From Psammoneis japonica (lineage: Eukaryota): a stretch of 64,000 bases of DNA. Both the position numbers and the translations under genes were made by a program. Shown one piece after another: positions 2,771 to 60,613 of this stretch. Location: positions 1 through 64,000 of the forward strand of contig QPGO01000137.1 in assembly GCA_008632985.1 (NCBI GenBank). The letters run 5' to 3'. Below the pieces are notes generated by a model. It was not told where the DNA came from. It saw nothing but the letters and a program-made list of their open reading frames with translations, and did not search any database. Numbering within the stretch: position 1 is the stretch's first letter; each line of letters starts with the position of its first letter.

Positions 2771-3104
2771 GGAAAAAGTCGCGGCACCGTGGAACATCCC
2801 ACTCATGTGCACACCTTTTCTTGTAGCTGTCTTTATTGAGGGCTATGCGAGCGCGGACGGACCCCAGGACTCGTTCAAGCAGCAGATGATCAGTACAAGA
2901 AACAAATAGGAATTACGTATGCTTAGTCAGCACTCGTTCCTACTAGCACTTAAGTCAGTCTTAACCTCCATTCTCCTTCTTCTTCCTGGACTCACTCTAC
3001 AATCAGCTCACTGTAAAAGAGAGACGCACTTTTCGAGCGCAACGACGATTCTGTAAATGGAAAAAAGGGAAAAACTAACTGCTAGATTGTATTTACTGTT
3101 ATGA

Positions 3105-6230: not shown

Positions 6231-6422
6231 GCATGCCAGCGTTGTTGAGTGAAGTGATCACAGCAGTGCTTCATTGCATTTCACACAGGTGCCACAAAAT
6301 TTCTTCTTGGTGCTTCTGTTTGTTGAGTGGTGTGTCCTCAGCAAAAGGGTTTTGAGTGAGAGAGGCCAGGAGAGCTGCGTGGGAGTGGAGAAGGTTTTGA
6401 GACTGTGCTGAGGGAAGAGGCA

Positions 6423-6608
6423 GAATCGCGCTGTAACAAAAAATGTCAAAAGTTGTTGGACGGATCGCTCAATGAGTGTACCGTAAAATGACACAAAATG
6501 TCGAAAAAATCACGTAGAAATCTACGTGCGCGACATACGACGAGACTCAAAAAACTGTCGATGTCACAGTTCAGCAGTACGAGGTCCCACCTAGACCTGG
6601 AACGCGTC
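6423..6608. mobile_element. MITE family 1, truncated copy (one TIR)
   Basis: Near reverse complement of 29081-29267; ends ...cctagacctggaacgcgtc; keeps many TpA. Confidence 0.85.
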
Positions 6609-9600
6609 GCCAATCATCTGGAGAAAATGGCAAAGAGGCCATTGATGCTGACAACATCAGATGGAGTGGCATTTGTGTCCAAGGAGCAAGAGCAGAAGGA
6701 GGGATGATTGTGACAGGGGTCAGCAGCAGTGCATTTGCAGGGGGGTGCAACAAGCAATCATCGCATCTGGCTGGTGTGCAGCCCCAGGTGGGACTGTGTG
6801 CAACATGGGCCCACAGAGTTCCATGCACAAGCTCTGCAGCTCAACAGATTGGCCAATTGATTCATTTGTTTGACACCCAAATAAGTTGCTGAGTTTGTGG
6901 TGCAATTGCACCTCTTGACACTGGCAGTTTTTGAAAACACATCTGCCCTGCACAGCTCTCAAGACATTTGAAATTTGTGCTGCACAAAAAAAGCAAAAAG
7001 TTTCCAAATGGGTGGCCTGATGACTGCACTGCAAAATGACACCAAAGTCACACAGAAAATGCACGTGTGCAACTTGCAAGGCATCTCAAAAACTGTCAAT
7101 GTCATGGCAGCTCAGCAGCGCACCGGGTCCCAGCACCTGGGGCTGGAGCATGCCTGGCAGAAGTTGGAAGGCACAATTTGTAAAGATGGGGTGGAAAAGG
7201 CAAGATGGTTGTGATGACATGTGACAAGTCTTGAAAAGAGAGGTTTCAACTGGGGCAGCAAGGGAGGGATCAGGGGAGCAATGCAGGGCAGGAGGCTGGT
7301 GTGTGCCAAAGTGTTGGAAAATCCAACAAGAAAGCTGTGGTGATCATGTCAGAAAGTGGCCCACCTGCTGCACAGAGACTGGGCATCAAACAATGGGTGG
7401 GGGGGAGCAAAAGGGGGTTGCTGCTGGAGGAAGTGACAAGGCCACACATCATTGAGCAGCAGAAAGAGTGGGCAAGATGGGTGACAAGGAAGGGGGGCAG
7501 CCCTGGCTGTGTGACAGAGCAGCATCCAACCCCGCCCCCCATCAAAGCAGAGGTGGTGCAGGGTGTGGCAGCAAGGTGCAGGGTGGCAGAGGCCAGGAGC
7601 CCCTGCAACAAGGCATTGGAGGAGCATTTTGCAGTTGCTTTGGGTGGCTTGTTGGGGCAGAGAGGACCACAAGATGATGGGAGCAGGGTTGTTGACATTG
7701 AAGCCATGAACACTGTTGCACCAAGGCATGCATCTGTGGACACTGTCATCTCGGACAGAGTTGCCAAGAGTCTGTCACCTTTCCTGCAATTGATTTTGAG
7801 GATTGTCCCTGCTCCAACCAAGGAAGTTGTGTCTTTGTTCAGACTTCTGTCATGCATGGTGGCACCTCACGAGATGGCCGCCGGTCTCACTCGATTCATG
7901 GCAACAAAGACAGGTTGGAATTTGGTTGGGTGCCTCAACTGCCTGCAAGTCCAACAGCAATGAAGTTGGTGTTTGTGCTCATGATGAAGACAAGGCAAGA
8001 TGGTGGAGAACATTTCAAGGTGCAAAGCACCGGAGACAAACTTCACCCCCCGGAGGATGGCTGCATTCCTTTGGATGAGGATGGCACGCTTCATGACATT
8101 GAGGAGGCAACCCTGGACACTGTTGCATGGTGGAGAATGGCAGACAGCCGCACTCTTGGCATGTCAAGTGTGATCAGTCTGCTCCCGCGCCTCTGGGTCT
8201 TGTCGTTGGCGCCGATGAGCTTGTCGGAAAGAACACTGCTGTGATTGATTCTGGCATCAAGGACGACTGTGAAATCTCTGACGAAGAAGGAATGAAGGGA
8301 GCAGGCTGCATTGGCACCCCAGGACGAAAATGAGCAGTTGTCATGTGCAACAAGAAGGACGGAAGCATTGTCGTGGTGCATGCAGCCCAATGAAGATGGC
8401 TTGCACTGGCGCGAGATTGTCCACAACGAGATGGTCTGTGTGTGAAGGAAGTTCGTCACATCAAGGCCGCTGGGGAACTCGCCAATGAAATGCTTGCCAA
8501 TGCAGACAATGATGAAGTCGAAGTCGTCTCATCGTGGGGGCTCTTCATTGCGACTTCTGGTGTCACCAAGACTGAAATTGCTGGTCTCACAGCACTGGCT
8601 TCTTGACAAACAGTCTGCTGCATTTCTCGAAAGTAATGCAAACAATGCAGTCTAGTTGTTCATGTGGATGTGTTGCCTTGATTTCGCAAATGTGACAATT
8701 GGATTCTCTGCGCAATCCTGGGTTCAGTCTAAAACTGAAATGACACAAGCTTGCATGTGCAATGGAGACAAGCTCCATCACTCATTGGAAGCTTGCAGCA
8801 ACTCGATTTTGTTTGTGTTCTGATGTCTCTTCCATGACCAATTAAACCGCATCAACATTGGCAATTCTCTCACACGAAGCAAGTGCAAATGAATTTTGCT
8901 TTCCCGGAGCCAGGCATTGCATGCAGTGTGCAACACACCCAAGAACGACAGTCACAACTGCTGCATCCCTGCCTTGCAAATGAGACAACCCAACTCAAAC
9001 TTGCCATCATCTACAATGGCATGCTGCAGTGATGTGCTGCACTTGGTGCAAATTTTCATGAATGACTTGGACGTCGAATGTGGGCATGCCCAAAACCAAA
9101 TTTTGAAAATTTCGCAAAGATGTCAACAGCATGATTGCGCTGTCATGTTCTTGTTTGCACGCATGTGGTGCCAGCCACAAACAAAACTCCAAAATTTTTA
9201 TTCAGTTGCTCACAAATTTTTGCAACATCATGGTGCAATGCAAAATGACACAACTCAAGGGTGACAATGGCCCGCGCAACTGGCAAGAGGAGATCGGATG
9301 TCAGCGGGCAGTGCTGAGTCCTTTCAAGTGTGGGTCTGCACAGCACTTGCACACAAAGCGTGTTGAGTGCTTTTTGCCATTTTCCCAGGCTTTGGCCCCC
9401 TTTTTTTGGTGTCAACTCTTTTGTTTTACCAGCCAGCTTGAGTCAGCTCTCTCAGCTCTGGTCAGCCAGGGGTCAAGAGCACAGTGAGTTGAGGTGCTGT
9501 GCCAGCGGCACTTGGTGGCAGCAACAGCAGCGCATTGGCGCCAATGCAGTGCCAGCTGCAACACACAGTGCACAGCATGGTGGTTTCTTTTTTAAACTCA

Positions 9601-9699
9601 GGCACACAGCTTTGTGCATGCTTTCCACCATGCTCAGAGCAGTTTGTGTGCCTCCTGAGGTGTGCACAATGCTGCACGCCAACCAAAAACTTCTCTGAC

Positions 9700-11200
9700 C
9701 TTGTTTGTTTTTGATGATGCCACCAGTCTGTTGTGAAATGCCTGTGTCTGTTGTGGCAGTCAGAGACCATGTTGCAGAACAGCAGCTTTGGTTCTGCTGG
9801 GTGGTGGGTTGTGTGGTGGCATCTCTGGGGCACTGCTGGCACTCTGTGGCTTGCTGCAGTGTTTGCTGCAACAGCCAGCCCTTGAAGGTTCAGAGGTCCA
9901 CTGGATTTTCTCACCCTCCTGCTCTGAGCCCAAGTTTCCTTTTCACAACATTCCTGGTGCACATCTTAAGCAGTGGCAGCTGCCAGTGCCTTGGTGCAAT
10001 GCACCAGTGAGTGCCAGTGCTTTTGTGCCTGACAGCACACAGAGCTGACTTCAAGCAGACAATCTGTGAAATCGGCTTTTGAGCAGGAGGCACCAAGACA
10101 CAGCTCTCTCTGGCTTTGTTCATTTCAAAATCCCACAGTTGCTTGCTTTCCCAACTGCCTCATTGTTGCAAACAAAAGCCCTCTTTGCATGTGCTGATCA
10201 CATTGACAGAGTCATTGTGTGTTGCACAAAAGATGATGTTGGCTGGAAAGAGATGTGCACTCTGGCAACTTGTTGTTGTGCTCTGATGCTTTTGGATTGA
10301 GGCACAATTTTCACAGCAACAACAGGTGGCAAAAATTGGGCTGCTTTGCTCTGCTGATCTGCTCTGGTCTTCTTTTTGTGCAAACATTTTCCATCAACCC
10401 CAGTCAGAAGATGATCTCTCTCCAGCATGCCGCGGCTGCTCCCAAAACCACCTCACCCTCCCCCAACTCAAAATCTGATCACCAAAGAGGTTGTTGTGTG
10501 GCATGTTCTTTTTTGTTGGCTCAACAGCAAAGCATCTAAAAATTTGCCCACTCTGGAAATCACCATTGTCTGCAGCTTTTCTGCTGTCACTCACATTGCT
10601 GGTTGCCCCCAGGCCTGGGGAAAAGGCTTGTGTTGACACAAGTGTGCTTGAGGGCAGGTCCTGTGCACATTGTTTGTCAGCTTTGTTTTTCTTTGGTCAC
10701 TCCAGTTTCATCTTTTGCTCATCTGCAAGCCCGTTTCCCTTTTTGCCATGTCTGTCATGACCCCGTGTGGCTTTGCTGCCATGTTGATCCTCATCTCAGG
10801 AGCACGCTTGGTGACATTGTTGACATTGTGAGTCAGGGCATCAAAAACCATGTCACACTTGCAGGCAGGAATGCAGCCAGGCTCATCCCACTTGGGTGCT
10901 TCAGCATTGTTGCACAATTTGTGAATTTGTTTGTTTTGTGGCCAGCGTGTGCAAGTTGTGGCATTTGGCACATCTTTGTCACAGACTGACCCACCCATCC
11001 ATTGGCAGCAGATCAACCAATTGCTTGCTCCTTGCACCAGTCAGTCTGTCACAAGCAACAACCAACAGCACCATCAAAGTGAGCCAGCTCTTTTTGGTGG
11101 TCACCAAGTGCAGTGGTTGTGTCCACACACATTGCCAAGACCCAAAATGTCTTGCCACACACACATGCTGCAGAGTTTTGTAGCTTCAAAGTGAGGGGGG
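9700..11200 (-). mobile_element. piggyBac-like transposase relic
   Basis: TCTRWPQNKQIHKLCNNAEAPKWDEPGCIPACKCDMVFD resembles the piggyBac RF..I...L..N......GYD.LYK segment with Y->C changes. Boundaries approximate. Confidence 0.55.
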
Positions 11201-11815
11201 TTCCTTGGTCCCCCTTCCATGCCAGATTTCTCCACTGTTGAGCAAACAGGCAAAAAAGCAGTTGGAAGAAACAGAGGGAATCTGTGGATCCAGCAGCTCC
11301 CTGCAGAAAGAACTTGAAGATGAGCTTTGTCAATGACTGAACAACACGCAAATTTTGCGGTTCAGAAAGACCTGGCTGGTTTGGCTGGCTGTGCTCCATT
11401 TTGGTTGTGTCTTTTTTTGTGCGTGCTTCTTTGCTTGTGTTGTTTGCTCATGTTGACAATGGCAAAACCTTGCTCTGCTGTGCCCTGCTCAACAAGAAAC
11501 AAGGAAAGTGAACCATCAGTTTTGTGCATGGACATGTTGAAGGGAGCAATTTGTTGAGCTGCCAAAACAAGTTGACAAAGAAATGACATTTGACAGCAAA
11601 GCCTTTGATGCCTTTGTTGATGCATCAAATGCCACTGCTGTGCAAGATTGATGGAAGGAAGACAAAGATTGGTGCTGATGCAGTCACCTGCATTGACACT
11701 TGACTTTGCAACTCTCCATCCTCATGTGAAAAGGGAACATTTTGTTGTGTGCCATCTTGAAATGCAAACTTTGCTTCCCACAAGTGTGCACTTGAATCTG
11801 GAATCAATGTTGGTT

Positions 11816-14480
11816 TCAACATGAAGGCAAGGGCAAAGGGTGTTGCCACCAAAAAGAGGGAGAACACCCATTTGTCATTGCATCTGCCACAAAAGTCACA
11901 GTCACTCCATCAGAAATGTGGCTCTGTCATGACATTTGTGATGGTTGGTTTTCAAAACAAGCTGCTCTGCTTTGAATGACACAACTCAAGCAAAAGAACT
12001 TGGAGCCTTGAATGATTTTCATGCTGGCAGCACCAAAACAACCAGCTGGAAATGGCAGCCAAGCACCCCTTTTGCTGACAAGCTGACATCCCTCCTGCTG
12101 CCACTGCTGTGGTTGCTCATTGCTTGGCACACCTGCATGGACCCAGCACATCTTTCATGTTGTTGAATGGAAAAGGCAAAATGAGTGCTGTCACTGTTCC
12201 CTCCCCCCCCAAATGCAAGCACTGGTGAGACAGCAGGTGGGGCAGCACAGTGTCAGTCTTGAAAATCTTTTTGCCTCTTTTTGATGTGGCCTCACTTTTG
12301 CCATTGGCAACCCATGCACTGTGCAGACCCAACTCACCTGCCAACTTTTTGACAAACAATGAAGAATTTGCAATCCTCTTCTTTTCATGTCAAGAGCTTC
12401 AAAAGAAAGAGGATCACATGCAAAAAAGTTGCTGAAGACAGGACATTTGCAAACACAAGAAATGGAGGCAAGTGTGGCCAAGGTGTTGAAAAGGTTTCAT
12501 GTCTCATGAGCAGAAGTTGCCAAATGCACACATGCAGAAAGTTGGAGATCACATGCCTCCACTCAGTGGCTGGGGCCGCCAGTCTCTTGTTCATCCCAAA
12601 TTTGACACAACACTTGAAGAACAAGGCTGTCAGTGTGCGCTCATTTTTGAATGCCAAAATTGCTCTGATTTGCACTGAATCACAAACAAAAGGAATGCCA
12701 GGCACCACATTCAAAGCACAACAATGATGGCAAAATTGCCAATGTTTCTCAAAGGCACAGTTTTCTGCCATGGGGCAATCACAGCACACTGACTGTCATT
12801 TGACTCATGAGAAGCACAACTCTGAAAAGTGAGCCCCACTGCAGAAAGCCTTTGTTTTGAAAATTTTTGCAGCTTGCAGTCTTTGCCATGGTGAAATGCA
12901 GAAAAAATCACATGCAAAACACAAGTCATTTGGCTGAACTCAATCTTAAAAAATGTTGAGGTCAGTCACTCTCAAACCTGCACAACTTGGAAGCAACAGT
13001 GCATGAATCCCAGCACAGCAGCCTGTGATCCACAAACACAAGCCCACAACCTTTTGTGCACACTCACACAAGCCCCAAATGGAAGGCCTTTTTGAAGTTC
13101 CAAAGGCGGACCCACATGGACAACAGCACTGTGCATTGGACCAAACCACCTCTCGAGACTTGTTGTGTCCATCACAACAACTGCCACAAATGAGTTGCTC
13201 TGATGCAGCCAGGTGTTTTGCACCAAAAAGTGAAAAAACATTCTTGCAAGCTCTGCGTCACAGCACATCATTGCTTCAGCTGGAGCTGCTGCCCACATCT
13301 GTCTGCAGCCAACACACCCAAAGCAGCTTTGTGACATCCTTTGAGCCTCCGCCCTTCTGCCAACAAGGCAGCTTTTTTCAGCATCAACCTGATTTCCTGC
13401 ACAGGTCATTCTGCTTCTTGCACATGACTTCACTCTTGGCTTTTGCAAATGACAGGCTGATCTCTTGGTTGTCTTGCACAGAGCTCTTGCCCTGCTTTCC
13501 TCTGGGCTTCTCCTGCTCTGAGAAAAAAATGCAGAGTGCCCCCTGCCTTTCATCTTTTGCAGCAACCCTGCATGGTTCAGAGCAAGACTGCACCCAACAA
13601 TGTGGCAGTCCTTCCACCAAGAGCTGTTGACCAAAACAAGTGCCAAGATGCAAGCAAACAAACACATTTTTTTGAAGCACAGGAGTGCACTGGGCAGCAC
13701 TCTGCCATTTGTGTCTTGGCACTTTTTGCACTTCAAGCTGCAGCTGAGAAAAGGCACTCTGCCAAATTGCAAGTGACTTGGGTCTGTGCTGGTGCTTGCT
13801 GGTGTTTTGCTCTTTGTTTGAATTTTGCTCTGTTGTCACTCTGCGGCATTGTGTCATTTGCTGCACAGCTCCTCTTCTTGGTCCTCAGCAGCAGCAGTCT
13901 CGGCACCCCTGCTGCTGGCACGACTTTCAAAAACACACATGTGAAGTCTGATGAGTGAGGAGAGCATGTGGACATTGGAAACCTTGGAGAGCACATTGCA
14001 TGCCGAATCTGAGACTTCATTCAAGTTTGGAGCCACACTGCAAGAGGACGAATGATTGCGAAGGACAGCAAGGCGGAATGTCGTTGAAGGTGAATCTAAA
14101 CCAAACATCTGCATTCCTGCATGTCATTGTGATGATGATGCCCTTTCCAATTAAATTGTTCAACAAAATGGCTTTGTGACCAATTCGCGGTGTCGGGTGA
14201 CACTGGCAATGCCGGCTGCCCGTGCTGTGCTGGAGGGCATGCACACGCAATCGCACCTCATCGCCGCTCTTCGAGCAAGTTTGCCAGCACAGTGTTGAGG
14301 CAGTTTATTTGTGGCATGCATGCATTTGCAAAGGGCTGCATCTTGTTGTTGCCAATGAAGCAGCACAGTTGACATGAGCACACATCATCCCACTGCATTG
14401 CTCTTTCGAAAAACATTGTGTCGCGCCAAAGTTGGGCTGTCTGGAGCAAAAAATGCTTTTCTTTTGACATGCAAAACACC
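11816..14480 (+). repeat. Copy 1 of a ~2.6-kb composite duplicated block
   Basis: Collinear with 17717-20360. Both start atgaaggcaagggcaaaggg and share aaatggctttgtgaccaattcgcggtgtcgggtgacactggc. Confidence 0.85.
12570..12971 (-). mobile_element. Degenerate copy of the 24417-24810 element; another copy at ~18463-18862
   Basis: Reverse complement aligns by eye to 24417-24810. The terminus is followed by tcaa where TTAA is expected. Confidence 0.7.
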
Positions 14481-14988
14481 ACCAAAAAAGAGCTTGTGCC
14501 TTTCAAAATCATCTCATGTAACCACATCATCCAAGCCATGGGTCCCCGCATGACACACTCCACATTTGACTTTCAAACGGTGTCACGCAGCCATGCATCC
14601 ATGCATCTTTCAAGAGTGAGCCGCAACTGATTGTCCGTGCCTTTGATTTTTTTCGACAGTGTGCGAATTCGGACCATGAGAAGAATGAGGCAATTTATTT
14701 TGAGGTCTTTGAGCAGAGGTGCGACGCTTTGGTTTCTTTGTCGGTGGCATGATGCAAAGAAACGCTCACGAAGGACGCAACACCATCATTCTGTATCCAT
14801 GAAATGCTCTGTTCGCTTTTAGCATGTTTCTACGTGTGATTTGTACACAAATCTTGCGTGAAGCTCCGATCGTTGCTTCGGGACGAAAATTCGAGCTTCA
14901 TGCGAGAAATCGCGCAATTGGTCGCTGGACACCACTTTCAACTTTTACAACCTGTTCCTTTATTGCCGTCGTTCATCGTGCATTCAGG

Positions 14989-16317
14989 ATGGACGGCAAT
15001 GTGAAATTCAGCTCAGACAAAGAGTTGAAAGAATGGTTGAAAAACAGAGGGGTGGACGAGGACGATGTTGAGACAGCGGCAGCCGCGCTTAAAGGAGTAA
15101 AAGACTCTGACACACTACTTGGTCTCAGCGGTCAGCAGCTGCAACAAGTCGGATTTGATGTTCTCCTTGCGAATAGGTTGAGCAATAAATTCAAACCGCA
15201 GCAACCACCGCGATTAACAGAGTCGACAGTAGCTGCGCTAAACGAATTTGCGGAAGAGCTTGTGGCAAGGAAAAGAACAATTACTCTCTCTAACGCAACG
15301 CAAGGAGTGAAGACCGAATTGATGGACATGCTGAGGTTACCGGAGAAAGGTGCCTCTTGGCCAAACAAGCCTGCAATTCCACAGCGCGTTGATGGATTTG
15401 TGTGGCGTAAGGGCGACGAGCATTCTGATGATAATCGACAGGCGTATATGGATTATCTTAGAGATATGTTGCAGATTCCGGAAAACTACGATTTGGCGGA
15501 TGTGCATCCACACAGGCATCTTCTTTCCGTGGAACTATTTCGAGGTACGACAGAGAGTCGAAAAGTAAGTGGGACTACGGATGTTGCTATTGCGAAATCC
15601 CAGCACGTTATGAATGATGCGGTTCGGAACAACATAGAAACTTTGCTGGAATTGAAAACACCCAAGAACATGAAAGGGAAAGACCACACTCCACAAATGA
15701 TCGTCGAACACATTGCGGCATCTTATTTGAATCTCGACCATGCTGTGGTTTCGGTATTGACAGATCTAAGTACAAAGTGGATCTTTTTTTGGTATGCCGT
15801 TGGGGAGGAGGATGCAAAGATGTCCCTCTTCAGGCTTACCCTCGACGGTGATGGAGCCGCAGCGGATGCGAAGTACCTTCTGGATAGCCTTTATGATAAA
15901 TCAGTTGGAGAGACCCTCCCTGCTACTTTTGCGGAACGCCAACCTCTTCAAGCCGTTCTGAATGACCTCCTCAGCCGAAAGAGAGAGCGAATGGAACTCG
16001 ATGGTGACAATGATCACAACCCCGACAGATATTCGAAACCTTCTTCATCAGGTGGCACGGGACAGCATCCAGGTTCCAATGCTGACTCCTCGTCAGAAAG
16101 GAAGGCTAGCCCCGGACAACAGAGCGACCTACGCAGCAAAGGAGATGGTGGAAGTGCTCCAATGAACGTGGCGAATGCATTGAGTCTGTTTGCTCCTCCA
16201 GCTGACAGAGACGTTGCCAACGAGCTTGATCTGCTAGATATGGTGGGACCAGACGAGCAGTACGAAATTGTTTCGTCATTTGCTTCAAAGCATATCGTCC
16301 CGTATATGAAGGGTTAG
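14989..16317 (+). CDS. Crinkler/CR-type protein: SAM-like N-terminus plus PD-(D/E)xK restriction-endonuclease-like domain
   Basis: Intact ORF; the track starts it at 14824, and ATG 14989 is my preferred start. N-terminal LKEWLKNRGV..LLGLSGQQLQQVG looks SAM-like; core VSGTTDVAI..LLELKT..PQMIVE..VVSVLTDL. Confidence 0.75.
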   Translation: MDGNVKFSSDKELKEWLKNRGVDEDDVETAAAALKGVKDSDTLLGLSGQQLQQVGFDVLLANRLSNKFKPQQPPRLTESTVAALNEFAEELVARKRTITLSNATQGVKTELMDMLRLPEKGASWPNKPAIPQRVDGFVWRKGDEHSDDNRQAYMDYLRDMLQIPENYDLADVHPHRHLLSVELFRGTTESRKVSGTTDVAIAKSQHVMNDAVRNNIETLLELKTPKNMKGKDHTPQMIVEHIAASYLNLDHAVVSVLTDLSTKWIFFWYAVGEEDAKMSLFRLTLDGDGAAADAKYLLDSLYDKSVGETLPATFAERQPLQAVLNDLLSRKRERMELDGDNDHNPDRYSKPSSSGGTGQHPGSNADSSSERKASPGQQSDLRSKGDGGSAPMNVANALSLFAPPADRDVANELDLLDMVGPDEQYEIVSSFASKHIVPYMKG

Positions 16318-17109
16318 AGGCGGGATGCCACTGTTTTAGACGAAACCATGTGCACTACTCGGAAGAACCAGACGAATACTCATACAGGACAAAGCCTTGA
16401 ACCCTCGGTGAAGACCAGGAATGAAATGAGTTCGGTATGAAAGGGTATGGCACTGGGTACCGACGTTTCTCTATGAGGCTCGGTCGTCGGTCGCGCTGGG
16501 ATGTCACGGCTTTGTACCTCAGCGACAAATTACTGTCACAAAATGTGTACGTGAAATTTTTCAGGTTAGGGACACTATACGACTACGCTTTCTTCTATAC
16601 GGTAGTGTCGTTAATAGGCGAGGCTTAATCAAGGGCTTTGTGGTCCACGGCGCGCCTAGAAAAAGATTTCTCCCAGCACTTTCGTGTGCCGGTACCTGGT
16701 AGATAGTTGTACGAAAAAAGTGTGGGAGAAATCACTCTCAGACTTTGGCAAGCAATCCCTTGTCGCTGGCATGCGTGCACGTGTGCACTGTGCACAACAG
16801 ATGGGTGGTGGTGGTGAGGATGACAGTGGCATGGGTCATGCAAGTGGGGTGCCAACAAGGCAGGTTCTTGGAAGATGGGATGGTAAGTTTGGAGTCAAGC
16901 TTGTGTGCATGGCGTGACAGCTGTCCAGCTTGGGCTTTGGTGACGGGGCAAAACTGACACTTTTACAGGCCCCATTGTTGAGCAGAAGGTGTTTTGTGGT
17001 GTGGCAGCAGGTGGTGTTGCGTGTTGGCCAAGCAACTGTCACTCTGGACAATGTGGCTCAGTCGCCCTTCTTGTGCTTCACTTTTGGTGGCACCAAGCCC
17101 CAGCCAATG

Positions 17110-17716
17110 TCTGTGGAATCTTGGCTTTTGCAAATGACAGGCTGCTTTCTTGACCATCTTTTACAGAGCTTTTGCATTGCTCTCCCAACCCTGTGCATGG
17201 TTCAGAGAAAGAGTGCACCCAATGCAACAGCCCCTCCACCAAGCACTGTGAGAAGCACAAACATGGTGTTTTTGGAGTGCTGTGGGAGAGCACAATGATG
17301 GAAGGCATTCCACTGCTTGTCTTTTGGCATTTTTTGCAGCACTTCAAGTCACAGCTGAGAAAAGGCACTCTGCCAAATTGCAAAGTGACTTGGGTCTGTG
17401 CTGGTGCTTGCTTTCTCAGCTCCTCTTCTTGTTGATGCTGCAGCGAGCACACAGAACATTGGCAGCATCAGTCTCAGTGCTGCCCCTGCTGGTGGTGGCA
17501 TGACTTTCAAAAACACACATGCAAGCTCTGAGTGAGGAGAGCATGATGTGGACATTGGAAAATGGGAGAGCACATTGCACGCCAAATCTGAGACTCTGTT
17601 GTTTGTGAGTTTGGAGCCACACAAGACGATGATTGCAAAGGACAGCAAGACAGGCAGAACGTCATTGTCAGGCGAATCTAAAAAATGCACATCTACATTG
17701 CTGTTGTGTTGCTGAA
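17110..17716 (+). repeat. Partial third copy of the duplicated block
   Basis: Shares cagctgagaaaaggcactctgccaaattgc and flanks with ~13430-14120 and ~19310-20030. Confidence 0.8.
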
Positions 17717-20360: not shown

Positions 20361-20367
20361 CTCTTAC

Positions 20368-21321
20368 ATGACTGTCGACATCATGTCAGACAAGAGTAGG
20401 CGGGGGAATGGAGAAAAAGAAGAAACAGGCGGCTGCGGCATTCTCTACTTTGGGTACGGCGCTCTCGTGAATCCAGTCTCTCGTGCTCGTCGAGGAGTCG
20501 AAACCATCAATGAGCGTCCGGCGATTCTCGATAATTTTCGCCTAACATTTGCTTACGGAGGAGCCGCAAATATTTTGAGAAAAAGAGGATGGTCTGTACA
20601 CGGTGTTCTTATGGAGTGCAAGGCGGAAAAAGACTGGGAGTTATTAAAAGAGTTTGATGCCGGATACGATTGTATTGACGTGGAAGTCTTTCCGTACGAG
20701 TCGGAACAGTCCGTAAAGGCACATATTTTTGTAATGGCACACGATGAAACCGAAAACGCAAAGCTCCCTACAGAGAAACTACCACAGGAGCGATACGTCA
20801 AGGTGATTGCCTCGGGCATGCGACATCACGGCGTGGACATTGATTACATTGATTACTCTATCCTCAATGTGCCCTATATTCCCAATCGTAAGCCGGAAGA
20901 GTACCTTACCTTTCCGCAGCAAAAAGAAGGCAAATTGAAAGCAATGACCTATACGGAATACACAAAGAAGGCACAAAAGAAGGCCTTGTTTCTAATTGGG
21001 AATCGCATCATTATGTTGGGTGATCATGACCCCGAATCTCCCTTTGTGGTTTGGATATCCACTCGCATAGTTGGAAAAGAAGATTGTACCTGGACCATGT
21101 TGCAAACATTATTTGATCCGGATTTACCCACGTGCGAAACAGAAGCCGACATTCAGAAATTGCACAATGACTGGACGGAAAATCAACTCTGCGAAAAGTT
21201 TGAACAGGCCAACCTCTCTGGAACGGTGGTTGCGTTGCTCAAAGAGTCGTCCTTCAAGAAGAAACCATCGTCCGTTGGCCGTCTCAAGGCTTCCTTCCGG
21301 AGACTTACAGTCAAGAAATAG
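20368..21321 (+). CDS. Gamma-glutamylcyclotransferase / AIG2-like family protein
   Basis: LYFGYGAL, RPAILDNFRLTF..GGAANI, VHGVL, PQERYVKVIASG. Start is ATG 20368 or 20383. Confidence 0.8.
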   Translation: MTVDIMSDKSRRGNGEKEETGGCGILYFGYGALVNPVSRARRGVETINERPAILDNFRLTFAYGGAANILRKRGWSVHGVLMECKAEKDWELLKEFDAGYDCIDVEVFPYESEQSVKAHIFVMAHDETENAKLPTEKLPQERYVKVIASGMRHHGVDIDYIDYSILNVPYIPNRKPEEYLTFPQQKEGKLKAMTYTEYTKKAQKKALFLIGNRIIMLGDHDPESPFVVWISTRIVGKEDCTWTMLQTLFDPDLPTCETEADIQKLHNDWTENQLCEKFEQANLSGTVVALLKESSFKKKPSSVGRLKASFRRLTVKK

Positions 21322-21968
21322 CAGAAGTGTGATGGTTTGCCAGTCGCTCCGTTTTTTTTTTAGAATGACTTGTGGTCCTGATGATGATTCTTGAGAGACA
21401 CACAAGTGCTGCAAGGTTTCCTACACCATGACGAAACGGAGCCTGCGAATGCGCGGCATACATCCTATTACCGCCTGCGGCATTCATCGGCTGAAGCTTG
21501 CCATTCGTACGTGTGTGACAGTCTGCTTTGGGTGACACTACGTGTACCTTGTACTATTCTAAAAGGTACACGTTGTTTTTCTGCAGCCTGGCTAACTACC
21601 GCGATTGACAGATTCTTTTTGGTTTTGGAAATGCTCCAGTCGAGCAACGTTATTGGTGCGGATAGACTAGCAGCCAGAGTCGATGAGGCTCATCAAGATC
21701 CCGTTTTAGCGGGAATTTTTACAAATCACGTTACTGTCTGTGTCGCAAGGATCTCTGGGGTGGAAACAAGGTGAATGATTCATGTTTCACAACTCCTTTT
21801 TTTTTTTGCGGGGCCATTTTGCGAGAGACTGATCTTCCTCAACCGCAGAGAAAGAAATGAAGGGTCCATGTACAAATTATATATGATAAGGGACCCGTGT
21901 ACAGTACATAGAGTGTAGTTGAATTAGCAAGAAGATCAGCGATACACTATATCCTTGTTCGTGTAGTA

Positions 21969-22405
21969 CTCTAGTCGTTTGTTTCCGCTCTTTTGTGCAT
22001 GGCCTTCAATGGCGGATCTATTATCGATTATAAATTCTTGTACTAAAATGTGTCCCAACGAGTCGAGCGACAGGCCCATCCATTTTCTTTCCGTCTCCGT
22101 TTCTCATTATTTCTAATCACGAGAAATTAACAATGCCAAACTTACATAGTGAAGTGGAATTAAATGTGTTCTTGTTTGGGCACTCTCTAGTCCTTTGTTT
22201 CCGCCTTCTGTTGTAGGACCTTCGATGGCGGATTTGTTTTCGATTATAACTTCTTTTATGTATCCCAACGAGTTCTCACGGGAAATAACAATACCAAACT
22301 AAGTGTAGTGGAATTAGAAAGATCGGCGTTATCACATTCTTTTATATATGTGTCCCAACGAGTTCTCATTTCTAATCACGGGAAATAACAACACCAAACT
22401 TATTC
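21969..22405. repeat. Degenerate tandem duplications of the Hsp70 3' end and UTR
   Basis: The tcacg(g/a)gaaat..aacaa..ccaaact motif occurs at ~22116, ~22275 and ~22376; tcccaacgagt occurs three times. Confidence 0.8.
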
Positions 22406-24264
22406 TCCAGAGCGTGTCCTCGGTTCTTCATCTCCTCCAGAGTGGCATCCTCGCTATCGAGTTCTAGCCAGTCCATTAATTCTTCAAGTTCCATCATTTT
22501 GTCCTCGTCGTCACAAGCACTGGTGGATTGCGCGGATAGGAGCGCCTCCTCCATGGCTGTCTTGTAGGCTGCCTTTTTGGCGAGTTCCGCATCCTGCGCT
22601 CGGTACCGTTCGGCCTCTGCAATCATTCGATCAATGTCGTCTTCGCTGAGACGACCCTTTTCCGCCTTGATGGTGGCTTGCGCTTGAGCACCCGTGACTT
22701 GGTCCTGTGCGGATACATTCAAGATCCCATTGGCATCCAATGAAAAGGTAACATCGACTTTCGGTTCGCCTGCCGGTGCACGTTGAATACCCGAAATGAC
22801 AAAGGATCCCAGTTTGTTATTTGCGTCAATGGAAGGACGTTCCCCTTCGTATACGACAACATCAATCGATTGCTGATAGTGCTCCACTGTCGTGTAGGTC
22901 CTTGTCTTTTTGCAAGGGATGGGTGTATTTCTCTTGATGAGCGTCGACATGGTTCGTCCCTCCAATTCAATCCCCAACGACAATGGCGTCACGTCCAGGA
23001 GCAACAAGTCTTGACTTTGTTGTTGCATCAAATCTTGTCCACCTCCACTACCACCCGTGGCTAAAATGTGTCCTTGTACGGCAGCACCAATCGAAACCGC
23101 CTCGTCGGGATGCAAGGTCTTTGACAATTGTATGCGTTGATCAAACATGTCGAAAAGAGCCGATTGCAAAAACGGAACACGTGTACTACCACCCACAAGG
23201 ACGACATTGGTGACTTGGTCCATTTCGACTTGAGCATCCACCAAAACAGACTTGACCGTATCCAAACATTTTTGAAAGAGATCGGCGTTGATTTCTTCAA
23301 ACACGGTACGTGATAGCGACACTTCAAAGTCAACATTATTGGGCAACAGTGAGTCAACCTCAATGTCGACGGAAAGACTGGATGATAGAGTTCGTTTGGC
23401 ACTCTCAACCGCTTGCTTCAAACGTGACATGGCACGATTGTCTTGACGCAACGCGTCTACATCGACGGATGGATGCTGCTGCTTGATTTGCTGAAAACAC
23501 CAAGTCATGACGGAATGATCAAAGTCTTCTCCTCCCAAATGCGTATCGCCACCCGTCGCCATGACTTCCAACACGCCCTCATTCATGGTGAGACACGTCA
23601 CATCAAAGGTTCCTCCACCTAAATCAAAAATAATGATATTATTTCCCTTTTCTGATGAAGAAGTGTCATTATGCAATCCATAGGCAAGCGCCGCCGCCGT
23701 GGGTTCGTTAATGACACGTCGTACGTTTAATCCTGCAATTCGCCCCGCATCTTTGGTCGCTTGTCGTTGCTGGTTATTAAAGTGTGCTGGTACCGTAATG
23801 ACGGCATCCTTGATTTTTGTCTTTAGATATCGCTCTGCTTCGTGACGTAATTCACTCAAAATCATGGCACTGATTTGTTCCGGAGACAATTGCTTTGTTT
23901 CGCCACCAAGCCACTGAACGGTAATTAACGGTTCATCGTGTTTGCCTCGCGTCACTGAAAAGGGAAATTGTTTCATCTCTTCTTGTGTTACAGAGTCTGA
24001 AAAGGATCGTCCCAAAATACGTTTCACATCATAGACTGTATTGGTAGCATTCGACGATGCCTGATTCTTGGCGGCGGATCCAACGAGCACTTTTCCACTT
24101 TGAGCACTAAATCCGACCCACGACGGCATGGTCCTGCCAGAAGCGGTTGGAATTACCTCTACCTTTTGACTCGTTTTGTTAAAGCAAGAAACACATGAGT
24201 AGGTTGTACCTAGATCGATACCAATCACAAGACCTGATGGTTCTTGCTCGACATCCGTCATCAT
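22372..24264 (-). CDS. HSP70: Hsp70-family chaperone with short lid and no EEVD
   Basis: GIDLGTTYS, TVPAHFN, INEPTAAALAYG, IFDLGGGTFDV, VLVGGSTRVP, LLLDVTPLSLG. First ATG at 24264. Confidence 0.95.
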   Translation of the reverse strand: MMTDVEQEPSGLVIGIDLGTTYSCVSCFNKTSQKVEVIPTASGRTMPSWVGFSAQSGKVLVGSAAKNQASSNATNTVYDVKRILGRSFSDSVTQEEMKQFPFSVTRGKHDEPLITVQWLGGETKQLSPEQISAMILSELRHEAERYLKTKIKDAVITVPAHFNNQQRQATKDAGRIAGLNVRRVINEPTAAALAYGLHNDTSSSEKGNNIIIFDLGGGTFDVTCLTMNEGVLEVMATGGDTHLGGEDFDHSVMTWCFQQIKQQHPSVDVDALRQDNRAMSRLKQAVESAKRTLSSSLSVDIEVDSLLPNNVDFEVSLSRTVFEEINADLFQKCLDTVKSVLVDAQVEMDQVTNVVLVGGSTRVPFLQSALFDMFDQRIQLSKTLHPDEAVSIGAAVQGHILATGGSGGGQDLMQQQSQDLLLLDVTPLSLGIELEGRTMSTLIKRNTPIPCKKTRTYTTVEHYQQSIDVVVYEGERPSIDANNKLGSFVISGIQRAPAGEPKVDVTFSLDANGILNVSAQDQVTGAQAQATIKAEKGRLSEDDIDRMIAEAERYRAQDAELAKKAAYKTAMEEALLSAQSTSACDDEDKMMELEELMDWLELDSEDATLEEMKNRGHALENKFGVVISRD

Positions 24265-24416
24265 GGCTTTTGTCTTGTTGCAGTGTTGTACCACCCCGTC
24301 GCAAGTGGAGATAGAATACAGTACAGTATGTGTACCGGTAGGGCCCTATGGTTTTGATGTCATGGTGATGTCATGTTCACGTGATGAATTTTTTATATGA
24401 CATGAGTGTCATTTAA

Positions 24417-24810
24417 GGGTGGTCGGTTGCTACTTTTTTTAGCTCGAATTCGGCCGAATAGCTCGTGTTTTGCATGATTTTTCCTGAATTTCACCGTGCT
24501 TCACCGTGGTGAAAACAACAAGCCATAAGTCTGTGACGGAGGTGGTCCGTCTACCAACTCTCATTTATTTTATGCTTGTTGTGCATCAAAGATTGCACAC
24601 ACATGAAAAGTTGGTAGAAGGCAAACTGCGTTTTTGAGAAACATCGATGATTGTCATCATCGTCGTGCTTCGATCGCGGTGCTGATGGTTCTCATTTTCG
24701 TGCATGATCGGGTGTGACTATGAACAATTCTTGCATTCAAAAATGAACACTGTGAAAAACCTCATTCAAGTGCAACGGTGATTTTGGGACAAACGCGGGG
24801 ATGACCCCCC
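24417..24810. mobile_element. Short non-autonomous TTAA-targeting element (Kolobok-like GG termini)
   Basis: ttaa|gggtggtc ... gacccccc|tcaa. Homologs at ~12570-12971 and ~18463-18862. Confidence 0.65.
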
Positions 24811-24814
24811 TCAA

Positions 24815-27240
24815 GGACATCCACGGGGGTGAGGCGAATGGGTTGTGGGTGCCGATTTTCCCGTAGTTCGCCGTGTTATTTGGACCCGTCTCCGAACACC
24901 CCCAAACACTTGTGTGTTCGACAAACCCTTGTCAGGGCTGTTAGACCGCCAGCTGTGTGAGCTGCATGTTCGAAGCTTCAAACGCCACTTGTCGGCCTGT
25001 GTCCTGTTGCTGGGTTGAAGTTGCCGCCAATTTTTGCCAAAATCGCGCTGCTTGTGGTAGATGTGAGCCACAACTTTCCTGCAGACACATCTGCAGTTGA
25101 CAAGCTAAAGATCGCACACAGTCACAACCATCGTTCATGCATTCTGTGATGTCTCAGGAGCTGACAAAGTCAGACCTGTCGCCAGACAGCGGTTTCAACG
25201 CGCATTTCAGGGCGAACGGTGAAAATGCGCTCATCACCCATTTTTCCTTCCCTCGCCGATTCATTTTGTTGCACATTGCACGTCTTCAAGTCTGTTGTGA
25301 TGGCACTCTTTGTCAGTTGAAAATGCAACTCTGCAGCATTGTTGACACCCCTTTGCAACACGCCATTTAGAGAAGACAGGCAAGTCAAATTTTTTCAACT
25401 GTGTCAGTCTGCAGTTCCTCCTTCCCCGCCAAAATCCCCACCCAACTCCTCAACATTGTTTTGCAGTGCAGTCTCTGTCTCGATGGTGAGGTTTGCCCTT
25501 TGCCCCTCTCCATCGTCTCGCCTGAAAAATTCGTCAGTCGATTGTCTTTTGTCTTGCACCGAGTGGCAGCTGATTCTGGCACGACACTCCCGAAGAGCTC
25601 GGGGAGGAATTGGAGAATTCCAAGACGATTGCCACATGGTGTCGGCTCAGGAAATCAGCAGCTGGGCCTGTTGTCAGGAACGATCGCACCGCGATCATCA
25701 AGCCGAGTTTGACACTGAGATTGATGGACTTGGTGCCAATGTGGGCGATTTTAAGTGGCAAGAATGACGATTGGTTTCTCGACAGGCTGAGCTGGAAGCC
25801 GAGCCACACAATTGTAAAAACATGGAAGTTGCCCCATTCAAGACGATTTGATGTTGACAGTCATGCGAGTGTTTTTGCATCAGTGGCAGGACTGGACATG
25901 ACAAAAAGTGAACATGGCATCATGTCTCTTTCAGCAGATGCTGCTGCACTTTGGCGGACCCTGCTTGCAAAGCAACGCTTGGCTGAGACCTCGCTCTCAG
26001 CCATCAGCAACCACTGTTTGCTCTGGGAAATGTGCTTGGGAGCACTGCATCACCAGCCCAAGCACATGACTTGTCACTCTGGGTGTTGTGCAAGATTCAA
26101 CTGCAGCACTTGAGATGATTGCCCACTGCTGCACGTCGGTTGGTTCATGGCCTGCGTGAATGGCAGGATTTGACCTCACAAGCAGTTTAGAAACAACGGA
26201 CCTTCCCAGTTCCCAGCAAAAAATTTCCATTGCATCAACCTGTTAGAAACGTCCATGCCATCAAGATCTCAAGTGCATCTCAAATGTGTGAGACCAATCA
26301 AGTGAACTTACCTGGATCATCGACCCACTGCACTGCATCAGCCCGACGGTGCATTTCTCATTGACCAACAGAGAACAGTGGCTTGAGCTGATTTTGGCTC
26401 GGATGATCCCAACAGAATGCTTCCAATGCCATCACACCAAGTCTCAACAAGTGCGCTAAGACTGCGCTGCATTGCAGAGTCCATGCTGGACTTTTCATCC
26501 ACCCCTGCAGTCAAGCTCATTCGTCCCGGCATCGTGGCATGAATCTCGTCATCAGGAGTGGCACAAATGATTGTTTGTTTTTCTCTCTGGGCTTCCACAG
26601 ATGGAACAATTTTGCACAGCATGACAGTTGGATGCAACAGAGAGCTGAAACATGGGAGACACTGGGAGAGGCAAGTCAAAATGCCATCAACAAGGCCACC
26701 ATCAGATCGATGACAACAAATCGACAAAAAACTCATTCCGACAATCCAGCACAAACCCCACATGGAAATCTACGATGATTTCCACGAAAAAAGGCACAAC
26801 CAAGATTCCTTCCACCATTGTCAACCACATCGACAACGACGACATCAAAGCATCTTGCACTGAAGAAAGTCCAACATGTGACCTCAACAATGCCATGAAT
26901 GACAACACATCTCATTTTTTCCTCAGTGTTGGCAGTTTACATGAAGTGGAACCGGCTGTTGTCGATTCATGGTGACTGCGGTTCTGAGCAACAAATTTTT
27001 TTTGTGCGGTGACAGTGTGCTTTTTCAAAACTTTGAAGATTAAAAAGTTCCTAATTCCAGTTTGATTTGGCACACCCGAGCATTTTTTTCACAGACAAAC
27101 ACGCTCACCGTTCTCGCGCGGAAACCGCTGTGTGGAATTTCATTTGGCGAACGCGCGTGCATTTAGTGCGGTGCATTCGGTTGTCATCCCAAAAAATTTT
27201 GGGTCCGCAAATGTCCGCCCTCACCCCCGTGGATGTGTCC
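24815..27240. mobile_element. 2.4-kb Kolobok-like DNA transposon
   Basis: tcaa|ggacatccacgggggtgagg ... cctcacccccgtggatgtgtcc|ttaa. RR..YY termini with a TTAA site are typical of Kolobok. No recognisable transposase. Confidence 0.7.
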
Positions 27241-27244
27241 TTAA

Positions 27245-28371
27245 CTTCAACCACCAGGGGAGCAAATCTCTGCGGGTGGAGATTTGCTCCACCCCCACTC
27301 CGCGAGCACTGCATGCTGTGCACAACGTTTCAGAGGTGTCGCGAAACTTCCCAGAGACATTGCATTTCTTGAGACATGCCGAACCTTTCAGCACACTTGA
27401 CAGTCGAAACAGGCTGAAAAGGACAGGATTTTTCATGCAGAATTCTGCGTTGTGCACAGTGTGCCATGCACAAGGTTTGAGTCGCTCAAGTTCCAAGTGC
27501 CTCATTTCAGTGGGACACAGATGGCGTTTGTTGACGATGGGTCAATGCTTGTCAGCATGTTCAATGGACAGCCTTTAAAATGGCAGCTTTCTTGTTCCAA
27601 TGACCTTGGAAGTGGAGTCACTTGTTGGTGAGGCCAACGCGCAGCTTTTGTGCGAGAAGTTGCACAAGCATTTTCTGCGTCATTTCTGCGTGAATCGCTG
27701 AATTTCATTGCACGTGCACCACATCAACCGCGCTTCAAGTGGGTCAACAAGAATGTCAAAGGCGTCTGTGACATGTTTGACACAATGAGGTCTTTCCAGA
27801 CACTTCAAAGCAGTTGGTTGATGGGATGACCAAAAGGCGCCAAAAATTGAGTTGGGCATGGCATGCTGCAGCATGCACATGTGCAATTTTTGCGATGATT
27901 TGCAAAAATGTCTGTGCGTGCAGTGGCATGCCATGCACAGCGCAAGCGGGGAATGTGGCGAACATGCAGTGGTGAGAAAATGTCATGTCGTGCACAATCT
28001 GCGTAAAAAGCACACCACGTGCATTTGCTTGTTGGGAGCAAATCTCCACCGGTGGAGATTTGCTCCCATGGGGTGGCATCATTGCTCTGTTTGTGATGGC
28101 AATTCATGACAAACTTCATTGTCAGAGGTTGAGATTTAGTTCCTCTCCATTCACAGGTGCAGCTTGCAAAAAACCCGGTGTTAAAAGTTGACATTGAACT
28201 TTCTAAATTGCAAAAAGGGTGCCTCCAGATTTTCGGCGAATGCGTGTTCCAGAACAAAATCGCACAAACAAAACATTGTGCACATCTGAAATTGCTTCAT
28301 TTGCTGCATTTGTGATGCAAGCGAGCAAATCTCCACCCGTGGAGATTTGCTCAAGTCCGGTGGTTGAAGGG
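27245..28371. mobile_element. Non-autonomous piggyBac-like element
   Basis: ttaa|cttcaaccacc ... ggtggttgaaggg|ttaa, with three gagcaaatctc..gagatttgctc palindromes. Confidence 0.85.
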
Positions 28372-28389
28372 TTAATTTTGCATTTGTGC

Positions 28390-29485
28390 TCCACCTGAGC
28401 ACTGCGATGGGTGTGGATGCAAGTTCACAATGAACCACGCTCTTTGGTGCAAGAAGGGTGACTTGGTCATCTTGCTGCACGATGAAGTCCATGACAACCT
28501 GGGTGACCCATGGGCAAGGCTTGCAAACCTTCCTGCACACGGGACGAACCCCCAATCAACCCCACCGGTCACAGCATGGGAAGCTCAAGCATCCCCACCA
28601 GTTCTCCAGGAAACACTGACTCCAACAAGTCCAAGGATGGCGATCATGGAGACCTTCTCGGCATGTGATTTTGGGATGGAAGGACAGACACAGTGACGGA
28701 CATTCGTGTCCCTCTGACATGGACGCAAAGTCACACCTGTCCAAAACACCAGAAGAAGTTCCAGCAAGCCACGAACGTGAGAAAAAGTGCGGGCACCTCA
28801 AGCCCTGTCTTGAGCAGCACCATCATTTCACGCCCTTTGCAGTGTCATGCGACAGACATCATGGCAAGGAAGCTGAGGCGATGCTCCACAAGATGGCGTC
28901 AAAGCCATCAGACAAATGGCAAAAGCCACACTCTGAAGCACGCAGCTGCATCAATGTGAGAATGAGCATTGCCATGGTCTGGGTGACCCGCCGTTGCCTC
29001 AGGGGATCATGCGTTGCTTCCCGCCCCTCAGATCAGCTCCAGATGACCCCAGCAGGAAGATGGTGCCGGTTTGTCCCCACGACGCGTTCCAGGTCTAGGT
29101 GGGACCTCGTACTACTGAACTGTGACATCGATAGTTTTTTGAATCACGTCGTATGTCGCGCACGTAGATTTCTACGTGATTTTTTCGATATTTTGTGTCA
29201 TTTTACGGTACACTTATTGAGCGATCCGTCCAACAACTTTTGACATTTTTTGTTACAGCGCGATTCTTTAATGTCTTAAGAATCGCGTAGGGCAGGCGCA
29301 TTTGCAAAAACGTCGAGTGGTAAGAGGCATAATTGTACAACAAACTTGGCCGTTTATTTGATGTTGAAGATAAATATATCCATTAATTAAATTCTCGTAC
29401 TACGGAGCTCGCACGTAGAATTCTACGGGCCCAATGTCACACGGAGTCCCACCCAGGGCTGGAACGCGTCCCACACAGATGCTGA
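28390..29485 (+). mobile_element. 5'-truncated CRE-like non-LTR retrotransposon (Zn finger plus restriction-like endonuclease), interrupted by a MITE
   Basis: CDGCG..HALWCKKG..LHDEVHD, DHGDLL..FW..TD..DIRV..DAKS, HFTPFAVSCD..GKEA..KWQKPHS..RMSIA..RCLRGS. Removing the MITE and one TSD restores the end EDGAGLSPHRC*. Confidence 0.8.
29081..29470. mobile_element. MITE family 1, youngest-looking TpA-intact copy
   Basis: TIRs gacgcgttccaggtctaggtgggac / gtcccacccagggctggaacgcgtc; TSD CCAC. Confidence 0.95.
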
Positions 29486-39112: not shown

Positions 39113-39114
39113 CA

Positions 39115-40097: not shown

Positions 40098-40101
40098 TGG
40101 G

Positions 40102-58549: not shown

Positions 58550-58599
58550 GATCATCAAGGATCATGGCAAATGCCTTGTTCTTGTTCTCTTTGAGCTCT

Positions 58600-60610: not shown

Positions 60611-60613
60611 ACA

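Follow-up and report, generated by a model that had tools for sequence, protein, structure and literature searches.

TpA depletion outside genes in a contig of Psammoneis japonica, and a neighbour rule at the surviving sites

We analysed positions 1 to 64,000 of Psammoneis japonica contig QPGO01000137.1 (GenBank assembly GCA_008632985.1, forward strand), a 64-kb stretch referred to below as the window, in which the dinucleotide TpA is nearly absent outside genes and their immediate surroundings. Over the whole window TA has an observed/expected ratio (O/E) of 0.235, and TG and CA have ratios of about 1.57. A two-state hidden Markov model (HMM) on TA density was used to split the window into TA-depleted and TA-normal segments. 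The depleted state comprises ten segments totalling 45,456 bp, with TA O/E of 0.035-0.17, CG O/E of 0.15-0.80 and TG/CA O/E of about 1.9; the normal state comprises nine segments totalling 18,544 bp, with TA O/E of 0.46-0.91 and CG O/E of about 1 or above. About 95% of TA steps are missing from 71% of the window. The large normal segments consist of genes plus a few hundred bases on either side, and the small ones are young repeat copies. The borders between the two states are sharp, so that the depletion is confined to regions, as is the hypermutation described in Bigelowiella natans. An earlier, sequence-only reading had dealt with positions 8600-28400. The principal segments, as delimited by the HMM and with genes assigned by Pfam, are listed here; Y stands for a pyrimidine, R for a purine, and the tetramer classes are defined further below.

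1-2620: TA-depleted block, TA O/E 0.049.
2621-5607: TA-normal block with the glutaminase gene (3105-5243, minus strand).
6593-14792: TA-depleted block, 19 TA in 8.2 kb, TA O/E 0.035, CG O/E 0.23; the survivors are 9 YTAR, 10 mixed and 0 RTAY; the largest depleted block within 8600-28400.
14793-16710: TA-normal block around the open reading frame (ORF) 14824-16317 (plus strand), which has no Pfam family.
16711-19995: TA-depleted block, 8 TA, TA O/E 0.037; low-copy by contig depth; holds the second copy of a local 2.7-kb duplication.
19996-24615: TA-normal block with the GGACT-like gene (20305-21321, plus strand) and the HSP70 gene (22372-24294, minus strand), TA O/E 0.605, CG O/E 1.07.
24616-29094: TA-depleted block made of repeats, 25 TA, TA O/E 0.087, CG O/E 0.65.
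31546-33258: TA-normal, AT-rich island, TA O/E 0.735, high contig depth, with an RT_RNaseH fragment (31857-32366, minus strand; E 4e-5, just below the Pfam cut-off).
35228-41007: TA-depleted block, TA O/E 0.059.
44271-53223: TA-depleted block, TA O/E 0.041.
56348-64000: TA-depleted block with three mutated copies of a miniature inverted-repeat transposable element (MITE), TA O/E 0.049.

The glutaminase, HSP70 and GGACT-like ORFs are intron-free and all match Pfam; their closest named relatives are diatom proteins with 48-66% identity, and the top unnamed matches reach about 70%. ORFs without a Pfam family lie in TA-normal DNA at 14824-16317 (plus strand), 40952-42873 (plus strand) and 54601-55590 (minus strand). 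The second of these is composed of ORFs 40952-42088 and 42082-42873, which share a few bases, as if a short intron or a frameshift had divided them. At 43521-43940 (minus strand) there is an MgtE fragment, and at 53714-54439 (minus strand) a bestrophin-like ORF. The AT-rich island at 31546-33258 is probably a young retroelement piece so far spared by TA erasure. No tRNA genes were found in the window, and no gene for an enzyme of the cytidine deaminase (CDA) fold (HxE...PCxxC) was found among the window ORFs scanned against Pfam. In depleted DNA, a Pfam scan of 84 ORFs of at least 130 amino acids, in which transposable-element proteins were sought for Tyr-to-Cys and Tyr-to-His changes, gave no credible match. 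Depleted DNA also holds a GC-rich (up to 60%), tandemly repetitive stretch at 45771-47270, with several long overlapping ORFs that have no Pfam match; its 239 CA against 135 TG form the sole clear strand asymmetry in depleted DNA. A 180-bp tandem repeat at 49177-49551, likewise within depleted DNA, has two units about 80% alike.

Within genes TA is close to ordinary, with O/E of 0.58 at codon positions 2-3 and 0.66 across positions 3-1, and the codons CTA, GTA, ATA and TTA are used normally. Non-ORF DNA in the normal blocks, 8.4 kb in all, has a TA O/E of 0.71. Ordinary TA at synonymous sites and in the flanks indicates that genes are shielded, not merely rescued by selection. The local 2.7-kb duplication (78% identity; 11821-14417 and 17717-20324, with a third, partial copy at 17119-17703) allows the same sequence to be followed in two settings. 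A duplicated 330 bp is depleted at 14090-14417 and normal at 19996-20324, just upstream of a gene; position, therefore, and not sequence decides the outcome.

The direction of change can be read from repeat copies that differ in their degree of depletion:

29080-29478, plus strand: MITE-like element, full-length, unmutated and TA-rich (28 TA), bounded by terminal inverted repeats and flanked by a 4-bp target-site duplication; taken as the reference for the ancestral state.
6422-6634, minus strand: second unmutated MITE copy, incomplete, 97% identical to 29080-29267.
60992-61393, plus strand: mutated MITE copy, 4 of 28 TA and 25 of 31 CG left.
58153-58571, minus strand: mutated MITE copy, 6 TA left; several sites took the other route than in the copy at 60992 (for example GTAC, with TG here and CA there).
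56764-57160, plus strand: mutated MITE copy of a second subfamily.
40090-40501, minus strand: mutated MITE copy of the second subfamily.
34870-35244, plus strand: copy of another repeat, partly mutated (14 TA), partner of 30508-30881.
30508-30881, plus strand: the more heavily mutated partner (3 TA; 22 of 22 CG kept).

The MITE family is about 400 bp long and has further members at 30299-30524 and 35247-35330. TA in the two unmutated copies has become CA or TG in at least five mutated copies, and copies may differ in whether a given ancestral site now reads CA or TG. The 4-bp target duplications differ in all five full-length copies, which shows that these are separate insertions, changed in place. 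The partners at 34870 and 30508 differ at 36 positions, every one a transition at an inferred TA site, with 22 CG in each copy and 14 against 3 TA; 8 of the 10 sites at which one copy has TG and the other CA are in RTAY context. A-to-G change affects 61 of 168 A that follow T, against 19 of 273, 21 of 213 and 6 of 179 that follow A, C and G respectively, the non-T figures being inflated by the TG/CA discordant sites. Comparisons of normal with mutated copies, related copies included, count 67 T>C and 62 A>G against 31 C>T and 43 G>A. Each repeat copy, once inserted, was changed on its own, and the direction of change is from TA to TG or CA.

The double-hit product CG is found in only 2 of 97 site-by-copy observations. 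It follows that the strands are hit one at a time, the first hit abolishing the target for the second. Overall there are 5007 TG and 4890 CA, with no strand bias, and no clustering of like products was detected (0.503 against an expected 0.5). Former TATATA runs at 24596-24600 and 35194-35199 read CACACA in one copy and GTGTG in another, which hints at several same-strand hits in one short patch; the cases are too few for a claim of processivity.

We classified each residual TA by its flanks: YTAR sites have TAY on neither strand, mixed sites (YTAY and RTAR) have it on one strand, and RTAY sites have it on both. The 167 TA left in depleted DNA comprise 90 YTAR (54%), 72 mixed and 5 RTAY (3%). 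Normal DNA has 19% YTAR, 49% mixed and 32% RTAY, alike inside and outside ORFs, and the survivors differ strongly from normal non-ORF DNA (chi-square 94.5, p 3e-21). The number of YTAR expected among 167 is 37 +/- 5 from the flanks of TG and CA sites, 42 from base composition and 50 from a first-order Markov model; the highest count in 20,000 draws of TG/CA-site flanks was 61. The depleted DNA within 8600-28400 retains 50 TA, namely 28 YTAR (56%), 22 with TAY on one strand and no RTAY (binomial p 7e-9 for YTAR and 5e-9 for the zero RTAY, against the shares in the window's TA-normal non-ORF DNA). The YTAR share stays at 54-58% after dropping TA within 100, 200 or 400 bp of a segment boundary, and repeats do not carry the excess, with only 8 similar pairs among the 167 contexts of 30 nt. 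Transitions in a flank preserve its purine or pyrimidine class, so CpG decay beside a TA cannot shift that TA between classes.

The sequence-only reading had held that surviving TA is mostly YTAR, and the counts agree, both in 8600-28400 and window-wide, even though the sites it listed were a selective set, all of them YTAR. The 12 sites are indeed TA with the tetramers it gave, 0-2 nt from the positions it gave:

8653 CTAG, 8730 CTAA, 8843 TTAA, 9967 TTAA, 10537 CTAA, 12947 TTAA, 14097 CTAA, 17679 CTAA, 18836 CTAA, 25752 TTAA, 26457 CTAA, 28182 TTAA.

It had also called the preference less than absolute, and this is seen in the repeat copies: CTAG has become CCAG in three MITE copies and CTGG in one, and TTAA has become TTGA at two sites. 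The ratio of depleted to normal frequency is 0.234 for YTAR, 0.071 for mixed sites and 0.008 for RTAY. They are consistent with independent attack on the two strands, at rates that differ about threefold. Even YTAR has lost about 77% of its sites, and the loss is at least 77% in every context. Taken alone, the survivors are compatible with contexts that differ in the decay of TA or in its creation.

Two further lines of evidence do without survivors. The first is route choice: at an ancestral YTAY or RTAR site, a preference for TAY predicts which product, TG or CA, results. When repeat copies were aligned to unmutated copies, the TAY-strand route had been taken in 34 of 40 site-by-copy cases at mixed sites; over all within-window repeat pairs with identical flanks required, it was taken in 28 of 34, the pairs partly overlapping. 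The second is a mass balance of products. Depleted DNA exceeds normal DNA by 26.3 per kb in the predicted class, YTGY plus RCAR, and by 12.4 per kb in the class YCAY plus RTGR. The summed gain of 38.8 is close to the loss of mixed TA (20.9) plus that of mixed CG (18.5). CG-derived changes show no such route bias (20:26), and once the CG share is divided evenly, about 17:3 is left for the TA-derived products, which implies about 5:1 in favour of TAY. The data support a conversion of TAY some 3-5 times faster than that of TAR, TAT being converted at least as fast as TAC, followed by TAG and then TAA.

Base by base, the depleted/normal frequency ratios are 0.02 for TAT, 0.05 for TAC, 0.11 for TAG and 0.17 for TAA. 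A log-linear fit over both strands gives per-strand survival factors at the +1 position of 1 for A, 0.61 for G, 0.32 for C and 0.17 for T (likelihood-ratio test 156, 3 degrees of freedom). The same fit finds an additional effect at +2, where the factors are 1 for A and about 0.36 for C, G and T (76.7, 3 degrees of freedom after fitting +1); whatever the +1 base, survival is about 2.8 times higher when the +2 base is A. The +2 base is A in 54% of survivors against 29% in normal DNA. TAAA is over-represented 3.7-fold among survivors and TAGA 2.7-fold, and TAGG, TAGT and TAGC are as depleted as TACN. The most frequent survivor hexamer, TCTAAA/TTTAGA with 17 sites, has TARA on both strands. The resistant word is TARA rather than TAR. 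The proposal of the sequence-only reading that TAY is the preferred substrate is supported by survivors, route choice and mass balance; as a complete rule it falls short, for an A at +2 protects about as strongly.

Several observations weigh against a context-dependent loss of TA. The raw route count of 34:6 includes related copies, and collapsing identical outcomes at each site leaves 15 of 21 (15:6) for the TAY route, with a binomial p of 0.08. At 24575-24780, where other genomic copies make seven mixed sites readable, three sites took that route and four the other. The +2 effect is visible in survivors alone, and a hexamer mass-balance test of the +2 route, which is noisy, went as predicted for the YTAR class (1.66 against 0.97 per kb) and the opposite way for the RTAY class (1.86 against 2.46). 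YTAR makes up nearly the same share of survivors in mildly depleted blocks (32 of 58, about 55%) and in strongly depleted ones (58 of 109, about 53%), and a class mix so constant fits an equilibrium of creation and decay better than simple exponential decay. Lastly, the normal DNA that serves as baseline is gene-associated and may differ from the true ancestor.

Contigs from public sequencing runs bear on both the reality and the copy number of the depleted DNA. Three runs match the window, none of them listed as RNA, and all come from one sample, probably the source sample of the assembly. Separately built contigs of run X1, with a word depth of about 55, reproduce the depleted stretches 19001-19653, 27770-28036 and 35305-35594 with 1-3 differences. 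Other genomic copies keep TA where the window has CA or TG at 12 of 14 sites among those listed for 24575-24780. In run X1, 1,151 of the 1,401 differing places counted by kind are transitions; for the three runs together, 1,452 differing places are listed. Depleted DNA at 24-36 kb matches, over much of its length, very many contigs, with a summed word depth of 300 to 106,000 against 55 over genes, a figure that is not a copy number; the summed contig depth of the unmutated MITE copy reaches about 106,000. The depleted stretch 19001-19567 has a depth of 70 against the 55 over genes and so appears low-copy, though it may consist of ancient repeats diverged beyond 80%. The most abundant repeated elements are the TA-normal ones, which fits young copies as yet unhit and argues against a strictly repeat-triggered process. 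Contigs of run X3 match 20355-21824 and 22354-24362 with 0-1 differences, and none covers the adjoining depleted DNA at 19.0-20.1 kb; they look like transcript-derived material, the kind of run being only a guess.

We consider the residual TpA to be probably the kinetic footprint of a near-saturated, TpA-specific T:A-to-C:G hypermutation that acts outside genes and their immediate flanks. Its agent would be an enzyme working on DNA in silent chromatin, which may turn the A of 5'-TpA into a C-pairing base, most likely by deamination to hypoxanthine, on one strand per event. The pocket of such an enzyme would read the 5' T plus two 3' neighbours. Thymine-directed chemistry on the opposite strand, with R-T-A as the target, would leave the same footprint. 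Enzyme, lesion and chromatin state are all putative, deduced as they are from the footprint in the sequence.

The alternative that survives best is a bias in repair, in which the attack on TpA is blind to context and the lesion is removed better when a purine, or AA or GA, follows. Footprints cannot separate the formation of a lesion from its repair, and the +2 dependence could equally be that of a glycosylase or an endonuclease. Nothing stands directly against this possibility, which still needs the same TpA-specific lesion and is in that sense a variant of the hypermutation proposed above; we regard it as improbable. Less probable still, and in our view quite unlikely, is that the survivors are new arrivals, background mutation making TA preferentially in YTAR or TARA contexts under a context-blind hypermutator. 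The constant class mix across degrees of depletion is what equilibrium would give, and three TA clearly occur in a mutated copy alone, as TTAA where other copies have TTGA or TCAA and as TTAT where they have TTGT. However, the TG and CA precursors are most abundant in contexts that would yield mixed and RTAY sites, the opposite of what survives, and the bias also emerges, without recourse to survivors, from the balance of products and from the routes taken at ancestral TA.

It is very unlikely that the depletion is an artefact of reading, that is, a TpA modification in silent chromatin that was miscalled, with the context bias coming from the modifying enzyme or the base-caller. The public runs all derive from one sample and their library type is not on record, so that the contig check is not independent. 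Against miscalling, the same type of mutation was measured in B. natans with Illumina sequencing (bioRxiv 10.64898/2026.01.13.699255), and the separate X1 contigs reproduce the depleted stretches. Repeat copies also differ by many indels and transversions, and a symmetric miscall would yield a mixture of TA, TG, CA and CG, not a 95% clean conversion with rare CG. Selection for certain TA words, such as NNTAAA-type signals or binding sites, is hardly credible: the frequent survivor hexamers ATTAAA, TGTAAA, CATAAA and AATAAA, which we take to resemble polyadenylation-signal variants, speak for it, but survivors are spread over 45 kb of non-genic DNA, lie on either strand and have flanks unrelated to one another, the top word TCTAAA is no such signal, and the route choice at lost sites is left unexplained.

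The closest known process is the hypermutation found in mutation-accumulation lines of B. natans. In those lines, A-to-G or T-to-C changes made up 230 of the 231 single-nucleotide mutations within the integrated DNA of a giant virus and a virophage (bioRxiv 10.64898/2026.01.13.699255), and all these AT-to-GC changes fell on TpA, giving TpG or CpA (Mettrop et al., 2026). The rate was about 1000 times background, in 11 of 15 lines, and elsewhere the B. natans genome has clusters of low TpA with high CpA and TpG; an ADAT2-like adenine deaminase was proposed as the agent, and the main text of the preprint reports no wider sequence context, the words 'trinucleotide', 'context' and 'flanking' being absent from it (bioRxiv 10.64898/2026.01.13.699255). 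The Psammoneis pattern resembles this in the conversion of TpA to TpG or CpA, in being almost only T:A to C:G, in its confinement to regions and in the combination of low TpA with high CpA and TpG. In both, the target would be silent or foreign DNA, and an adenine deaminase is proposed. In B. natans, however, de novo mutation was measured and TpA is only halved (Rho 0.45 in the region of the nucleocytoplasmic large DNA virus), whereas here the process is deduced from sequence and about 95% of TA has been removed. The depletion here also extends over 71% of the window, where MITEs and apparently low-copy intergenic DNA are both affected, and occurs in a diatom-like stramenopile. Its targets comprise the MITE family, other repeats and some low-copy DNA, and the lack of a credible Pfam match in all 84 ORFs bears on the question of a viral or foreign origin.

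Other familiar processes fit less well. Fungal repeat-induced point mutation (RIP), known from Neurospora and others, changes C to T mainly at CpA, creates TpA and requires duplication. The two are alike in that repeats are hypermutated through a dinucleotide, genes are spared, the dinucleotide skew is strong and copies are changed in place. In contrast to RIP, here TpA is destroyed and CA and TG are gained, the depletion extends to DNA that appears low-copy, and young copies of highly repeated elements are spared; the reverse direction speaks against RIP as the cause. CpG decay by deamination of 5-methylcytosine affects these blocks too and likewise ends in TG and CA. It differs in that the loss of CG is much slower and more variable (O/E 0.15-0.80) and is free of a bias of route by Y or R flanks; copies that lost 11 of 14 or 24 of 28 TA kept 22 of 22 or 25 of 31 CG.

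The sequence-only reading had likened the context to the UAC of the tRNA deaminase TadA. TadA and ADAT2-ADAT3 act on A34 of tRNA, after U33, the resulting A-to-I change being read as A-to-G; they prefer a 5' U or T, the word for TadA being UACG, and most substrates of eukaryotic ADAT carry a purine at +1. The depleted DNA does not bear out a target word of the UACG type: TAT is more depleted than TAC (0.02 against 0.05), and TACG, with a share ratio of 0.52, is not singled out, being no lower than TACC (0.32) or TACT (0.48). A 5' U or T neighbour is also preferred by ADAR, as quoted in bioRxiv 10.64898/2026.01.13.699255, and amphioxus ADAT2, the one enzyme of its kind whose sequence preference on DNA is known to have been measured, favours GAA for the adenine (PMC10354150). 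The 5' T preference seen here fits adenosine deaminases generally; unlike the DNA studied here, the substrates of TadA, ADAT and ADAR are RNA, and the ordinary behaviour of TACG and the order of TAT and TAC set the present pattern apart from that of TadA.

Literature searches on RIP in diatoms, on TpA depletion in diatoms and on DNA adenine deaminases returned nothing on diatoms, and the library searched has no paper joining TpA, TpG, CpA and diatom. Metagenome contigs searched with the glutaminase of the window alone gave no relatives; a search with an alignment of 17 glutaminases gave 80 loci with 33-50% identity. The lowest-TA stretches of those 80 loci are GC-rich (64-75% GC) and probably bacterial, with a TG/CA O/E of at most 1.46 against about 1.9 here, and are uninformative on other diatoms.

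The type of process is already known from the TpA hypermutation of B. natans; here it occurs in another lineage, has reached saturation over essentially all non-genic DNA and follows a neighbour rule that the B. natans preprint does not give in its main text. The rule makes a compositional oddity into a testable enzyme signature, which can be checked on the 231 de novo hypermutations of B. natans and on candidate deaminases or thymine-modifying enzymes. We put forward, tentatively and as a possibility we would not rate as the likelier outcome, that this is an old genome defence of the whole SAR group (Stramenopiles, Alveolata and Rhizaria), common to diatom-like algae and chlorarachniophytes. 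In such a defence a natural DNA-directed enzyme, either an adenine deaminase or an opposite-strand thymine modifier, would act on TpA wherever DNA is silent and turn its A into a G-pairing base, with T-A-Y-(not A) as its footprint; here it would have run to saturation and remodelled the whole non-genic genome. If true, the enzyme would stand as the first case of a natural editor of DNA adenine that follows a defined sequence rule. The adenine base editors in use at present rely on a TadA evolved in the laboratory, and natural editing of adenine in DNA would be of practical interest for base editing. In the depleted 71% of the window, TA erasure has cleared non-genic DNA of most stops of the TAA and TAG kind, as well as of TATA-like words and of transposon target sites that contain TA. 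Should the same order of TAT, TAC, TAG and TAA, together with the resistance of TARA, hold in B. natans, a single enzyme family would stand behind the defence of two distant algal groups.

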